64,000 nucleotides of DNA from a phage (GCA_014437165.1 GCA_014437165.1_4090.3); one strand, 5' to 3'; counted from the first letter of the stretch, positions 30,325 to 46,946 are shown. Program-made: numbers and translations. The notes: generated by a model from the letters alone, not told the origin.

Positions 30325-30356
30325 AGTACTATTGCACGGTGATAGTACTTTATAAT
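30325..30356 (+). promoter_or_regulatory. inverted-repeat operator-like site adjoining a TATAAT box
   Basis: AGTACTAT-n10-ATAGTACT then TATAAT 30351-30356; nearest TTGCAC gives only a 13-nt spacer, so promoter geometry is atypical. Confidence 0.4.
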
Positions 30357-30392
30357 AGATTTCTTTTATACAACAACGATAGGGGTAACAGC

Positions 30393-30659
30393 ATGAATAT
30401 TATATACTTTGCAACGCGTGAACTTGCTCGGATTGCCGCACGCCAGGACGGGGCGACGTTTAAAGATATGGGCGTACAATCTGAACGTGGTAAACGTTGG
30501 GCCGTAGTAAAGCAAAGTACAGCCCGATCAATTCAGTACTGGCTATCTGCTTTAAAGCGTCCTGATAGTGTATCGCGTCGCGTGGTAGAAATAAAGCACG
30601 ACCGCAAGGGCAACCGCGTTACTGTGTACAGTACTAAAAAGATAGCAGTACTTGAATAA
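30393..30659 (+). CDS. hypothetical protein; paralog of 42872-43267
   Basis: Internal ATG 30393 (MNIIYFATRELARIAARQDG..); ends ..HDRKGNRVTVYS like 42872 product. Confidence 0.6.
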   Translation: MNIIYFATRELARIAARQDGATFKDMGVQSERGKRWAVVKQSTARSIQYWLSALKRPDSVSRRVVEIKHDRKGNRVTVYSTKKIAVLE

Positions 30660-30665
30660 AAGTAC

Positions 30666-30724
30666 TTGCAAAGTAAGTTAAAAGGCGTATAATACTTTCT
30701 ATCAGGTGGGGAAGTATTCCCCAC
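30666..30724 (+). promoter_or_regulatory. promoter + leader-hairpin cassette
   Basis: TTGCAA 30666-30671, 16 nt, TATAAT 30688-30693; hairpin GTGGGGAA-GTA-TTCCCCAC 30706-30724. Confidence 0.7.
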
Positions 30725-30743
30725 CACATAAGAGGATTTAAAA

Positions 30744-30974
30744 ATGACTATCATGTATATGACCGAAGTTAAAACTGTAAAAGATACTACCACTGATAAA
30801 ACTACTTACTTACAGCGGATCTGTGGTGTATGGCAACGTATCAGTAAAGCAAAGTACTATAAATTAACATCATATGCCAATCGTTCGGATTCATTCAGTA
30901 CTGAAATAAAAGGTAATAAAGTACACCAATACGGCACTTATTACTATTATAGCCTGGACGCGATTGCAGTCTAA
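30744..30974 (+). CDS. hypothetical protein
   Basis: RBS AAGAGGA; 76 aa. Confidence 0.65.
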   Translation: MTIMYMTEVKTVKDTTTDKTTYLQRICGVWQRISKAKYYKLTSYANRSDSFSTEIKGNKVHQYGTYYYYSLDAIAV

Positions 30975-31006
30975 GCAGTTTTTGAAAATATTTACAATTG
31001 CCGGTA

Positions 31007-31035
31007 TTGACTTATTTTGTCAGTACTGGCATAAT
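31007..31035 (+). promoter_or_regulatory. sigma70-like promoter reading into a non-coding repeat-rich stretch (possible sRNA)
   Basis: TTGACT 31007-31012, 17 nt, CATAAT 31030-31035; downstream GCCCACGGGGTGCGGGAGTGTATCTA and TGCACCCGGTGGGTTAG motifs, no credible ORF. Confidence 0.45.
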
Positions 31036-31223
31036 GTATCTATTGAAACGAACAATTTGGCCCACGGGGTGCGGGAGTGTATCTATAGAAAAAGTAGTTT
31101 AGTACAGTTACAATTGTGCACCCGGTGGGTTAGCTGTTGTCATGGGGTATATTATACCAGTACTGGATAGTGCTGTCAATACCTTTTTACTATTCAGTAC
31201 TTAAAACTATTTTCAAAAAGTAC

Positions 31224-31368
31224 TTGCAAACTATGTTTAAAGGCGTATAATGTTTTACATCAGGACGGGGAATGAATAAGTAACTCCCCGTTAAGTAGCC
31301 CAGGAGTAAGGCACACGAAAAACTCCCCTGATAAAATAGTTTGACAATTGTTTTTAAAAGCGTATAAT
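31224..31368 (+). promoter_or_regulatory. tandem-promoter cassette with conserved ~90-nt structured leader
   Basis: P1 TTGCAA 31224-31229/TATAAT 31246-31251; hairpin ACGGGGA..TCCCCGT; P2 TTGACA 31341-31346/TATAAT 31363-31368; near-identical copy at 41447-41590. Confidence 0.6.
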
Positions 31369-31400
31369 ACTTACATCAACTACTGAATGAGGGTTACAAA

Positions 31401-32012
31401 ATGAAAACTATCACTACTACTACTTATGTTATGGCTTTTTCTGAATTGAACGCAGAACAACAAACGTCAGCTATCGAACTGGTTCGGGATCGGGAACGTT
31501 CAAGCGGTGATGATTTCTTTTCTGAGTCAGTGATCGAGTACTATAAAGAAACAGTACTACCAGAATATGGAATTGATGACGCTGATTTGCAATTCAGTGG
31601 TTTTTGGTCGCAGGGTGACGGTGCATCAATCAGTACTGACCACGTTGACGCAGTGAAGTTTTTACGCAAGGTAAGAGCATTAACTAAGTATCGCTCAATC
31701 CGTCACCTGCTGAATGAAGATGATTTGGCGATGAGTGTAAAGCGTTCTCACTCCCACTACTCGCATGAGAACACTGTAAGCGGGTACATTGAATCGGCTT
31801 ACACTGATTTAACCGCAAAACAAGAAACGTTAGTTAATGAGCTTGAGGAACTACTCACTGATACTATTCGTGAATTATCCCGCAAGTTGTACCGTGATTT
31901 AGAGAATGCATATGAGGATCAATTCACTACTGAAAACATTACGGCACTGATTGAGGGTAACGAATATCAATTCAATGTTATTGATGGCGTAGTAGAATCA
32001 ATCGAATATTAA
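31401..32012 (+). CDS. hypothetical protein
   Basis: RBS GAGGG; 203 aa. Confidence 0.65.
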   Translation: MKTITTTTYVMAFSELNAEQQTSAIELVRDRERSSGDDFFSESVIEYYKETVLPEYGIDDADLQFSGFWSQGDGASISTDHVDAVKFLRKVRALTKYRSIRHLLNEDDLAMSVKRSHSHYSHENTVSGYIESAYTDLTAKQETLVNELEELLTDTIRELSRKLYRDLENAYEDQFTTENITALIEGNEYQFNVIDGVVESIEY

Positions 32013-32024
32013 TTCAAAAAGTAC

Positions 32025-32084
32025 TTGCAAACTAAGTTTAAAAGCGTATAATACTTTATATCGAGGCGGGGAATGGTTCCCCGC
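32025..32084 (+). promoter_or_regulatory. promoter + leader-hairpin cassette
   Basis: TTGCAA 32025-32030, 16 nt, TATAAT 32047-32052; hairpin GCGGGGAA-TGG-TTCCCCGC 32066-32084. Confidence 0.7.
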
Positions 32085-32105
32085 TCACACTAAAAGGGCA
32101 ACAAA

Positions 32106-45277: not shown

Positions 45278-45298
45278 AATACAATAAGGAATAAAATC

Positions 45299-45706
45299 AT
45301 GTCTACTACTACTAATCTCGCTCGGAACATCACTAACGATAAAAATCATGCTGCAATGGTTGTAGCTTACATTGAAGCTATGCAATTCAGTACTGTACAT
45401 AATGATAACGGCGATTACCTGGAAGATTATGAGTTATCTGATGAAGCACGTCAAGCGGCGGTGATTGCATGTTCTCGCTTCATTGAGAAACACGGTAATG
45501 ATCTGGAAGTAGTTCGCGGTATGTTTATTGATTACGGTTATGAGCAAGCTGGTCATGATCTGTTCCTTACCCGCGAAGGTCACGGAACTGGTTTTTGGGA
45601 TCGTGGTTTAGGTCACTATGGCGATGTATTCACGAAGTACTGCGAAGAAATCAACGTTTGCGATCCCTATGTAGGCGATGATAATCTAATCTATATGGGC
45701 GAATAA
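45299..45706 (+). CDS. hypothetical protein
   Basis: RBS AAGGAA; 135 aa. Confidence 0.65.
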   Translation: MSTTTNLARNITNDKNHAAMVVAYIEAMQFSTVHNDNGDYLEDYELSDEARQAAVIACSRFIEKHGNDLEVVRGMFIDYGYEQAGHDLFLTREGHGTGFWDRGLGHYGDVFTKYCEEINVCDPYVGDDNLIYMGE

Positions 45707-45712
45707 AAGTAT

Positions 45713-45771
45713 TTGACAAAGTATATCAGTACTGTATAATAGTTTACATCAAGGGGAGAATAGTTCTCCCC
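45713..45771 (+). promoter_or_regulatory. promoter + leader-hairpin cassette (copy of 45219 cassette)
   Basis: TTGACA 45713-45718, 16 nt, TATAAT 45735-45740; hairpin 45753-45771. Confidence 0.7.
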
Positions 45772-45793
45772 GATACTAAAAGGAAACAAAATT

Positions 45794-46066
45794 ATGTCTA
45801 GTTACTCCGCTACTATGATCATTAAAGATATGAACGGTAATCCTACTTCTGCTGGTGGATCATTTGGAAACATTAATTTAGATGGTCGGTTATCCATGCA
45901 ATCAGCCATCGATGCAGCGAAAGAAGTTTTTAAGAATGAATGTACTGTTAGTAAGCTGGATTATATGGGATTCGCTATCGAGAAAACTAATCGTTTTGTG
46001 AACTACAAAAATCCACTGATGATTGATACTAACCTGAAAGCTAACGAAGTGGGGTACTTATTATGA
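45794..46066 (+). CDS. hypothetical protein
   Basis: RBS AAAGGAAA; 90 aa. Confidence 0.65.
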   Translation: MSSYSATMIIKDMNGNPTSAGGSFGNINLDGRLSMQSAIDAAKEVFKNECTVSKLDYMGFAIEKTNRFVNYKNPLMIDTNLKANEVGYLL

Positions 46067-46254
46067 CAGTAGAAGAAGTTAAAAAAGTACTGGCAGTACT
46101 ACGCTATCATAATCATTGCAAGGTGAAGAATGATCCTGATTATGTTGATTCATCCCTGGAGGAAGACACATTAAACGCAATAAGCCATATGCAAACATTA
46201 GCAAAGCGTATGACCGAAAAGAATAGACCGGACTATATCGGAAATAAAATTTAA
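46063..46254 (+). CDS. hypothetical protein
   Basis: ATGA overlap with previous; 63 aa. Confidence 0.55.
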   Translation: MTVEEVKKVLAVLRYHNHCKVKNDPDYVDSSLEEDTLNAISHMQTLAKRMTEKNRPDYIGNKI

Positions 46255-46261
46255 AAAGTAC

Positions 46262-46322
46262 TTGCATTGTAGTTAGATTAACGTATAATGTTTTACATAG
46301 AGCGGGGGAATAGTTCTCCCGC
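46262..46322 (+). promoter_or_regulatory. promoter + leader-hairpin cassette
   Basis: TTGCAT 46262-46267, 16 nt, TATAAT 46284-46289; hairpin GCGGGGGAA-TAG-TTCTCCCGC 46302-46322. Confidence 0.7.
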
Positions 46323-46340
46323 CAGTCCAGGAGATACACC

Positions 46341-46604
46341 ATGAACACTATCGAAATCACTATCAATGCACACGTATACGACAACGTAGTACTGCAAACT
46401 ACTATGACCGCTAATGATACCAGTACTTTGCGGAATACCGTTGTAAGTGCTGTATGTGCTGCAATCGGTGATGTAGCCCTGGAAAATGCAGAACACATCA
46501 ACAACGGTTTCACTATGTGCAAACGTGATAACGCAAAACATATCATCTTAGAAGGTTACGGCGGTGTAGAATATAACCTTTATATGAAAAAAGTACTTGC
46601 ATAA
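46341..46604 (+). CDS. hypothetical protein
   Basis: RBS CAGGAGA; 87 aa. Confidence 0.65.
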   Translation: MNTIEITINAHVYDNVVLQTTMTANDTSTLRNTVVSAVCAAIGDVALENAEHINNGFTMCKRDNAKHIILEGYGGVEYNLYMKKVLA

Positions 46605-46653
46605 TAACTAAAACAAAGTATAATGTTTTGCATAGGGGGAGATATCCTCCCCC
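46597..46653 (+). promoter_or_regulatory. promoter + leader-hairpin cassette
   Basis: TTGCAT 46597-46602 (overlaps previous stop), 16 nt, TATAAT 46619-46624; hairpin GGGGGAGA-TAT-CCTCCCCC 46635-46653. Confidence 0.65.
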
Positions 46654-46671
46654 ACTAAAAGGAGTAATAAA

Positions 46672-46896
46672 ATGGCTAACTTTGATGAACTAATGCGGGA
46701 AGTAGCTAACCTGGCAGAAGAGAAGAAATCATTCGATTCTATCTATAACACCGCTCATCGTGATTCAGTACTGGCATGTACTCAGGATCAAAAAGATGAA
46801 CTGATCGCCACCTACCATGAAGCGTGGCAGTACTACCGCCAATGGGAGAAAGAAGAAAGTGAGTCTACCATTGACGGCCTCAATAATCTAATCTAA
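46672..46896 (+). CDS. hypothetical protein
   Basis: RBS AAGGAG; 74 aa. Confidence 0.65.
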   Translation: MANFDELMREVANLAEEKKSFDSIYNTAHRDSVLACTQDQKDELIATYHEAWQYYRQWEKEESESTIDGLNNLI

Positions 46897-46907
46897 AAGT
46901 TTTATTT

Positions 46908-46946
46908 CAGTACTATTGACATAGCTTGATAGTACTGATGTAATAA
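46908..46946 (+). promoter_or_regulatory. promoter embedded in a palindromic operator-like site
   Basis: CAGTACTAT 46908-46916 / ATAGTACTG 46929-46937; TTGACA 46916-46921; -10-like TGTAAT. Confidence 0.55.

Follow-up and report, generated by a model that had tools for sequence, protein, structure and literature searches.

The palindrome AGTACT is the commonest hexamer in a stretch of 64,000 nt of phage DNA (GCA_014437165.1; one strand, positions counted from its first letter; hereafter the window), with 257 copies where 20.7 +/- 4.8 are expected on basis of dinucleotide-preserving shuffles (the maximum of 100 shuffles was 31). The excess extends to the genomes of related phages, is under selection, and includes copies at recurrent positions in early promoters. 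The original prediction, made from the sequence of the window, had pointed out the striking frequency of AGTACT, which is borne out by these counts, and had proposed a dimeric regulator that acts on a subset of the promoters between 30325 and 46946, which holds only in part. We propose that AGTACT, in its optimal form CAGTACTG, may be the recognition site of a putative clade-specific dimeric factor that would bind double-stranded DNA, mark the phage DNA and occlude early promoters, a reading to which we give close to an even chance.

Distribution of AGTACT in the window and in related phages

The window represents DNA of an Asteriusvirus jumbo coliphage, as it is 90-99% identical to 121Q, CRJP21 and ELP-22, and its last part (57-64 kb) is 99.2% identical to phAPEC6. 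Three parts can be discerned: the right-hand unique end (1-27923), a repeat of ~21 kb full of small early genes, and the first 15 kb of the left-hand unique DNA. The direct terminal repeat annotated for vB_Ec-M-J (OQ718158.1, 1-21525) served as reference; its mapping onto the window places the equivalent block of early genes (~21.5 kb) at 27924 to ~49020. It carries ~45 rightward sigma-70-like promoters. The repeat of fEgEco12 was reported to measure 20,993 bp (PMC13070987). According to that paper, digestion of Asteriusvirus DNA with ordinary restriction enzymes also agrees with the in silico prediction, so that the DNA is not hypermodified.

The AGTACT sites are indeed present within the predicted span, but they run from position 26 to 56992. 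Most of them (241 of the 257) form a carpet over coding and non-coding DNA between 1 and 48889, with 2-5 sites per kb at 1-24 kb and 4-10 per kb at 24-49 kb. The peak covers the terminal repeat, begins upstream of it at ~24 kb, and ends with a last site at 48884, ~140 bp short of the end of the repeat. Given the open reading frames (ORFs) of the window, which are crude greedy in-house calls, 165 sites are located within ORFs (3.1/kb, in all three phases) and 91 in non-coding DNA (7.9/kb), where chance would yield ~0.3/kb. Expected numbers were derived from order-1 Markov models and dinucleotide shuffles; a maximal-order Markov model is uninformative because the sub-words of AGTACT dominate their own counts.

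In EC22.5-2, another Asteriusvirus (350 kb, concatenated), AGTACT is the top over-represented hexamer (913 observed, 100.7 expected) and all 5-kb bins except one contain 4-39 sites. A 50-kb sample of ELP-22, comprising structural and metabolic genes, holds 101 copies (13 expected). The excess is 10- to 18-fold in samples of RaK2 (Alcyoneusvirus, Klebsiella; 119 versus 12 in 50 kb), GAP32 (Mimasvirus, Cronobacter; 253 versus 13.7 in 50 kb) and CBB (Mimasvirus, Pectobacterium; 87 versus 7 in 25 kb). No enrichment was observed in PA5oct, a distant relative that infects Pseudomonas (1 versus 7.8 in 25 kb), in rV5, which infects the same host and has early genes in common (3 versus 5 in 25 kb), or in E. 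coli K-12 (3 versus 4.8 in 50 kb). The excess is a trait of the enterobacterial Rak2-like clade, imposed neither by the host nor by the use of sigma-70 promoters. The motif goes unmentioned in the literature we found on jumbo phages, Asteriusvirus promoters and phAPEC6, and in the papers on CBB, RaK2, phAPEC6 and fEgEco12.

Selection on the DNA word

When synonymous codons were shuffled within the ORFs, 51 +/- 6 copies of AGTACT were obtained, compared to 155 observed. The middle and late genes of the related genome display the same preference: Ser-Thr dipeptides are encoded as AGT-ACT in 55% of the cases (16% expected from codon usage), Val-Leu pairs as A|GTA|CTn in 28% (6% expected), and the Tyr context nAG|TAC|Tnn occurs at ten times expectation. 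Synonymous freedom is spent on AGTACT, and therefore selection acts on the DNA word.

The comparison with EC22.5-2 (48.5 kb at 94.6% identity) made clear that 187 of 202 sites are kept (92.6%), versus 78.5% of all hexamers and 79.5% of composition-matched ones. The kept sites include 77 of the 80 in non-coding DNA and 110 of the 122 in coding DNA (versus 79%). Gains and losses between the two are in balance (17 and 15, respectively). At larger distance positions turn over: 32 pairs of orthologues of ELP-22 and RaK2 (66% nucleotide identity) hold 44 and 50 sites, of which 10 are shared by position, which barely exceeds the background of 15.5% for any hexamer. The spacing of the sites is more even than random (coefficient of variation of the gaps 0.79-0.87), and the largest gap in EC22.5-2, aside from two site-free domains described below, is 2.1 kb in 337 kb, where random placement gives a median maximum of 2.76 kb. 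This is the signature of a word for which density matters in the long term and individual positions do not.

One could suppose that the excess is a neutral by-product of biased mutation or repair, or of the spread of cassettes. A precedent is the inflation of CCWGG in E. coli through very-short-patch repair; a bias in repair would also make sites disappear more slowly, and many of the promoter copies of AGTACT belong to duplicated cassettes. Nevertheless, the one-mismatch precursors of AGTACT, including all transition variants, are not depleted (1.1-1.8 times expectation), the 9- to 18-fold excess is far above known repair biases, and the sites occur in unrelated genes and in all three phases. 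In addition, sharply bordered site-free domains and conserved promoter registers would not be expected. The tests thus contradict this explanation, and we consider it very unlikely.

There is a small but real chance that AGTACT is a Chi-like signal of self-identity. A nuclease or translocase, of the phage or of the host, that destroys DNA during takeover would then be stopped or modulated at AGTACT, or at a protein bound there, so that phage DNA is spared and host DNA, which is ~40 times poorer in sites, is degraded; the terminal repeat would be densest as it forms the exposed linear ends. The density in the phages is indeed 30-130 times that of the host sample, the coverage is independent of coding status and exceeds random placement in evenness, the density persists although the positions change, and the peak lies over the terminal repeat. 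Moreover, the genuine Chi of E. coli (GCTGGTGG) accumulates as well: EC22.5-2 has 28 copies where about 2.5 are expected (~11-fold), 11 of which in the terminal repeat, which implies that motif-based protection of ends is already in use. The window has 16 copies (about 0.6 expected), concentrated in the terminal repeat and mostly in one orientation (plus strand: 2677, 15005, 28512, 29359, 35310, 39029, 40491, 41409, 43952, 45851, 47428 and 47651; minus strand: 17280, 17538, 28500 and 35248), with a convergent pair ~580 bp from the left boundary of the repeat. The enrichment suggests protection of the genome ends via RecBCD, and indicates that the phage already manages the DNA-processing machinery of the host at its ends by sequence words. 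Yet, the Chi-type signals known so far lack symmetry and work in an orientation-dependent manner, whereas AGTACT is palindromic, and no cognate nuclease was identified. Under this reading, 13 kb of site-free DNA, from which the site even seems to be excluded, would go without protection, and fixed registers in promoters would be needless.

Specificity of the word and the fate of other palindromes

AGTACT is preceded by C in 41-44% of the cases and followed by G in 47%, while the opposite (G before, C after) is found in only 6-10%. The optimum with symmetric flanks is CAGTACTG; the 350 kb of EC22.5-2 contain 202 copies of it and 4 of GAGTACTC. Variants with one mismatch get no further than 0.5-2.6 times expectation, versus 9-12 times for the exact word. 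Judging from these frequencies, the specificity is sharp and palindromic and is probably read on double-stranded DNA.

The original prediction had called the abundance of such a palindrome unusual for a phage, and the other palindromes of EC22.5-2 agree with that. In this genome, 23 of the 64 hexamer palindromes have been eliminated, 15 of which have an expectation of 16-48 copies (among these 15 are CCATGG, TGGCCA, GCATGC, CTGCAG, GGTACC and GGATCC). The tetramer GCGC is lacking as well (0 versus 180 expected, and 0 versus 47.6 in the window); it is also absent from the samples of ELP-22, RaK2, GAP32 and CBB and present in PA5oct. EcoRI and EcoRV sites show no avoidance. AGTACT heads the ranking of palindromes at 9.07 times expectation, followed by AACGTT at 1.55 times. 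The combination of extreme purging and amplification of palindromes in one genome matters for the reading of restriction-avoidance statistics.

The purge bears on the possibility that AGTACT is the target of an orphan DNA methyltransferase of the phage. The methylated sites would constitute an epigenetic self-mark, with selection on the mark or on the enzyme, and the mark might protect from restriction of the ScaI/Eco255I type or discriminate strand or self like GATC/Dam. We give this explanation, too, a small but real chance. Several observations fit. Sharp specificity for an exact, short and contiguous palindrome is what Type II enzymes typically show, and a sole palindrome retained among 23 purged ones would need protection. 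The even coverage, with no gap over ~2 kb, resembles the needs of methyl-directed systems. Asteriusvirus (EC22.5-2, 91181-91663) and GAP32 (36342-36884) share a conserved phage methyltransferase of the Dam family (N6-adenine), the two copies being 42% identical. RaK2 was reported to encode two methyltransferases and to have DNA that is resistant to many restriction enzymes (PMC3622015). However, protection predicts neutrality, that is, an observed/expected ratio near 1, and not a 9- to 18-fold excess with bending of codon choice and purifying selection, and methylation leaves both the promoter registers and the site-free domains unexplained. Furthermore, Dam-family enzymes usually target GATC, which is under-represented in the genome (observed/expected 0.59). 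No partner resembling MutH, MutS or MutL came to light, although no search was aimed at one. For the therapeutic use of Asteriusvirus the matter is of practical concern, as a host enzyme of the ScaI/Eco255I type would have ~900 targets unless the sites are protected. The methylation and the Chi-like explanations are both still viable, and either could hold alongside a dedicated binding factor.

AGTACT in the early promoters

Around 50 sigma-70-like promoters were discerned at 28-48 kb, which mostly contain AGTACT and fall into several cassette families. Examples of promoters without the word are those at 24121, 31341, 41563 and 49541. Promoter cores in the early region carry 25 AGTACT per kb, compared to 8.2 per kb in other non-coding DNA and 4.9 per kb in coding DNA. 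Within near-consensus promoters the word is found in three registers (-19/-20, -29/-30 and -39 to -42), and in a paired form with copies at about -42 and -20, 22 bp apart from centre to centre.

Six palindromic promoter sites had been predicted and all six could be read directly. At 36005, 38514 and 46908 perfect inverted repeats of the form CAGTACTAT...ATAGTACTG enclose TTGACA and nine bases of the spacer. The first of these plus-strand promoters (36005..36041; CAGTACTATTGACATAGTTTGATAGTACTG at 36005-36034) reads CAGTACTA-TTGACA-N9-AGTACTGG-CATAAT, with the two AGTACT 22 bp apart around the -35 and spacer. The second (38514..38550; CAGTACTATTGACACTGATTGATAGTACTG at 38514-38543) has AGTACT at 38515 and 38537, and the third (46908..46944; CAGTACTATTGACATAGCTTGATAGTACTG at 46908-46937) at 46909 and 46931, but its -10 (TGTAAT) is weaker. 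The other three, also on the plus strand, differ in spacing. In the promoter at 42791..42827 (AGTACTATTTGACATTGCCCAGATAGTACT at 42791-42820) the sites are 24 bp apart and the core is a perfect TTGACA-N17-TATAAT. At 38775..38825 (CAGTACTATTAAAGATATTGACAACGTTTGATAGTACTG at 38775-38812) a distal AGTACT (38776) is combined at 31 bp with one at -19 (38807). Finally, at 30325..30356 (AGTACTATTGCACGGTGATAGTACT at 30325-30349) a pair 19 bp apart flanks a -35-like TTGCAC and is followed by TATAAT; the gene downstream of this promoter (30393-30659) is early, conserved and basic.

Half-sites upstream of TATAAT, which had likewise been predicted, are common: the window holds 14 exact copies of AGTACT-N1-TATAAT and 15 cases of TTGACA 9 nt upstream of AGTACT. 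The commonest class is TTGACA-N9-AGTACT-G-TATAAT, with AGTACT at -19 (41903..41930, plus strand), of which near-identical copies have their -35 at 42099, 42367, 45219 and 45713, and relatives occur at 3154, 28288, 38209 and 40594. In another class AGTACT overlaps the -35 (AAAAGTACTTGCAAA...GCGTATAAT; representative at 29986..30018, plus strand; further copies with AGTACT at 30661, 31219, 32020, 33277, 33745, 34066, 35698 and 37768); one cassette family has AGTACT over the 5' end of a TTGCAA -35 hexamer. In the class TTGACAGTACT (39906..39933, plus strand; others with the -35 at 8455, 37175, 43581, 43857, 47237 and 56466) the word overlaps the 3' base of the -35. On the minus strand, the promoter at 31145..31201 combines a perfect TTGACA-N17-TATAAT core with one AGTACT at -20 and another further upstream; similar promoters lie at 33715 and 29294.

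The annotated promoters of GAP32 display the arrangement AGTACT-TTGACA-N10-AGTACT-T-TATAAT, with sites at -41 and -19, and the overlap AGTACTTGACA (at -40) occurs in both GAP32 and CBB. The promoter architecture therefore persists across genera. The late-promoter-like motif TATAAATA was too rare (only 14 motifs) to establish an association with AGTACT.

The five-fold hotspot in promoter cores and the conserved registers might be taken to mean that AGTACT works purely as an operator or promoter element, in some of the early promoters, and that the other copies are incidental, as the original prediction had it. The genome-wide counts contradict this: 165 of the 257 sites in the window lie within ORFs, and ~600 sites in middle and late regions are without promoter association. 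Outside the early region the density is 2.15 per kb in coding and 2.53 per kb in non-coding DNA, with no peak upstream of genes. Besides, the coding sites are conserved (see above) and shape codon choice. We consider it hardly credible that the word serves promoters alone. What does persist of the predicted dimeric regulator is the symmetric palindrome in near-consensus promoter cores, at registers that recur in GAP32.

Domains without AGTACT

From 4-10 per kb at 24-49 kb the number of AGTACT sites falls to zero at 48885-54547, and the stretch from 56988 to the end of the window likewise has none. The first desert (48890..54547, 5.7 kb) begins just before the end of the repeat. It is followed by an island with 16 sites in 2.4 kb (54548..56992), which is also present in TH47, and by a second desert (56993..64000) of at least 7 kb within the window. 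The equivalents in EC22.5-2 (5.0 and 8.3 kb) are the only gaps over 2.1 kb in that genome, and TH47, which has 74-92% identity in this region, shows the same order of dense, desert, island, desert and dense DNA.

Given ~136 one-mismatch proto-sites and a divergence of 15.5%, neutral evolution should have produced approximately 7 gains or losses in the deserts relative to TH47, and none was seen; relative to EC22.5-2 approximately 2.3 were expected and again none was seen. This suggests that AGTACT is actively excluded. The possibility that the deserts are recent imports was rejected, since they persist at 74-92% identity and gains stay below the neutral expectation. Megablast matches to both deserts were to Asteriusvirus only. 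The first desert mostly consists of a tandem array of ~17-18 paralogous genes of ~70 amino acids (phrog_4148, 49604-55298), which share the motif FLGTNYQE..YV...I..L...I..K and in many of which stop and start codons overlap. The genes in the second desert had no Pfam match.

A putative reader of AGTACT

The factor that we propose would most likely be encoded by the phage and be specific to the enterobacterial Rak2-like jumbo phages. Selection would keep about one site per 380 bp over nearly the whole chromosome of 350 kb, so that the DNA of the phage, unlike that of the host, is 'painted'. The same sites would be built into strong sigma-70 promoters, upstream of or over the -35, just after the -35 or just before the -10, and sometimes in pairs two helical turns apart. 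Occupancy of these registers would occlude RNA polymerase and thereby shut off or gate early transcription, while two operon blocks just inside the repeat would stay free of sites and so escape the factor. As the promoters are near-consensus, and should need no activator, and as a dimer would overlap the contacts of the polymerase, repression or gating is the most economical assumption.

Several points weigh against this proposal. Whether binding would repress or activate is deduced from geometry only. An exact palindrome of 6 bp is more typical of restriction/modification enzymes than of transcription factors. Around 85% of the sites lie outside promoters, and middle and late genes that need expression carry ~2 sites per kb; a simple repressor model would therefore need a threshold of density or position. 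Many of the promoter copies are near-identical duplicated cassettes, and represent fewer independent events than the raw counts imply. The crude greedy procedure for calling ORFs also has to be taken into account.

The search for the protein itself adds to these points. No helix-turn-helix (HTH), ribbon-helix-helix or other DNA-binding domain was recovered among the 150 ORFs of the window with Pfam and PHROGs. The nine early proteins in common with GAP32 are all without annotated function and without a DNA-binding domain. CBB_511 (HTH_37) was considered as a clade-wide binder and rejected, as it has no homologue in Asteriusvirus. The original prediction had named the small proteins encoded immediately downstream of the promoters as candidate regulators, which found no support: they show no DNA-binding domain, and the AlphaFold model of the one candidate that was modelled, a basic protein, had a predicted local distance difference test score (pLDDT) of 67 and gave no usable fold (the best Foldseek match, E = 0.026 and template modelling score 0.28, is meaningless).

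Sequence searches of the PDB yielded no matches, and no small HTH gene was found beside the sigma-factor orthologue in Asteriusvirus. The basic conserved pair of paralogues (30393-30659 and 42863-43267), to which the modelled candidate belongs, was dismissed on this low-confidence model; its homologues are confined to Asteriusvirus.

Could the sites instead serve to manipulate the host, by binding or titrating one of its proteins such as the nucleoid-occlusion factor SlmA? The SlmA site GTGAGTACTCAC has a core identical to AGTACT, the hosts are all Enterobacterales, and the relative that infects Pseudomonas lacks the motif. The flanks, however, contradict this: GT.AGTACT.AC has 0 matches, GAGTACTC is found at 0 of the 257 sites, and the SlmA-type flanks (G at -1, C at +1) are the least used (9% and 7%). 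In addition, rV5 has no enrichment in the same host. A hijack of SlmA was rejected on these flanks. The resemblance to half-sites of LexA and TrpR fails on spacing: AGTACTGTATAAT fits one half-site of the LexA box (CTGT-N8-ACAG) and has no CAG at the needed distance, and the TrpR likeness was rejected likewise by reading the sequence directly. Titration of a host protein is contradicted by these tests and appears extremely improbable.

A broader claim, which we put forward as possible but rather doubtful, is that in the enterobacterial Rak2-like jumbo phages a sequence word, and not a base modification, serves as a chromosome-wide mark of self-identity that is read by a dedicated phage factor via CAGTACTG, by which phage DNA is told from host DNA. 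If true, the factor could protect or organise 350 kb of DNA, silence the early genes of the terminal repeat on schedule and leave two domains unmarked. The virus would then encode a chromatin or self/non-self system that is based on a motif and has domains under positive and under negative selection, without a known counterpart in phages. The word also bears on the way in which jumbo phages that have neither a nucleus-like shell nor hypermodified bases tell apart and protect a genome of 350 kb and time its expression: one exact word, with ~900 selected copies and conserved promoter registers, provides a handle. The two site-free domains, the relatives without the word and the nearly word-free host form built-in negative controls. 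Together, these should allow a putative reader protein to be found and its function to be tested.

Relation to known systems

AGTACT was compared with several known systems, and differs from the closest of these in four respects: it is an exact palindrome, it is viral, it resides in promoter cores and it is purged from specific domains. TF1 of phage SPO1 is a genome-organising protein that reads hydroxymethyluracil-DNA. The genome-organising protein p6 of phage phi29 switches off early promoters (PMC10899789). As in the model for AGTACT, both involve a phage protein that is thought to coat the phage chromosome preferentially, sites over early promoters and a switch from early to late. Unlike the AGTACT clade, p6 reads the bendability of DNA and TF1 hydroxymethyluracil, not an exact hexamer, and the respective genomes lack hundreds of selected copies of a palindromic word. 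Homologues of p6 or TF1 did not turn up here, although no search was aimed at them.

Chi/RecBCD, the DNA uptake and uptake signal sequences (DUS/USS) and GATC/Dam-SeqA-MutH resemble AGTACT in that an exact word is present above expectation, also within genes at a cost in codon choice, is evenly spread, turns over and marks self. These words belong to cells, whereas AGTACT belongs to a virus; they are not located in promoter cores and have no purged deserts. Chi and the uptake words are asymmetric and oriented, while AGTACT combines the over-representation in genes and the selected density of such words with symmetric flanks. SlmA-binding sites, Noc-binding sites, the KorA/KorB sites of RK2 and the C1 operators of P1 number in the tens and measure 12-17 bp. 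They too are scattered palindromes for a dimer, some of them over promoters; AGTACT has ~900 sites of 6-8 bp. In comparison with a classical repressor and operator, AGTACT shares the position over the core promoter but not the confinement to regulatory regions. Similarly, it shares the exact palindrome of a Type II target but not a frequency at or below expectation. Restriction-site avoidance is extreme in the genome of EC22.5-2 (23 of 64 palindromes, GCGC absent), and AGTACT shows the opposite, a 9-fold excess under purifying selection.

The promoter early stem-loop (PeSL) cassettes of T4-type phages combine a terminator stem-loop with a near-consensus sigma-70 early promoter (PMC2839356, PMC4122927). 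As here, highly conserved early promoters recur in a plastic region, between small ORFs, but PeSLs have no AGTACT-like word and the AGTACT promoters have no stem-loop. The window does contain cassettes of a terminator hairpin (A4G3-loop-C3T5) and promoter (AAAAGGGTTGACTTCGGTCAGCCCTTTTTGCTATAAT) that match the definition of PeSLs, with the -35 inside the stem (at 428, 4923, 6205, 7619, 37640, 41328 and 44791) and without AGTACT.

Other features

The early region encodes a protein with a ParE-like toxin domain (43330-43584; PF24732, E = 6e-11), a DksA/TraR zinc finger, a GNAT acetyltransferase and a member of the T7 gp0.7-like kinase family (phrog_15752), and further a STAND NTPase and a pyrimidine-dimer glycosylase. 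These proteins look like a toolkit for host takeover. In the right-hand unique end, eight genes with RCC1 repeats (beta-propeller) form an array on the minus strand (11978-24071; Pfam), which comprises ten ORFs in BLAST clustering. For the RCC1-type proteins of phAPEC6 a role has been speculated in organising the packaged DNA around the inner body of the capsid (PMC7247149). Finally, a gene-free stretch of 1.2 kb in CBB (positions 906-2131 within 328500-334500), which looks structured and is relatively rich in G+C, precedes an HTH regulator and a sigma factor and could be a non-coding RNA or an intron-like element.

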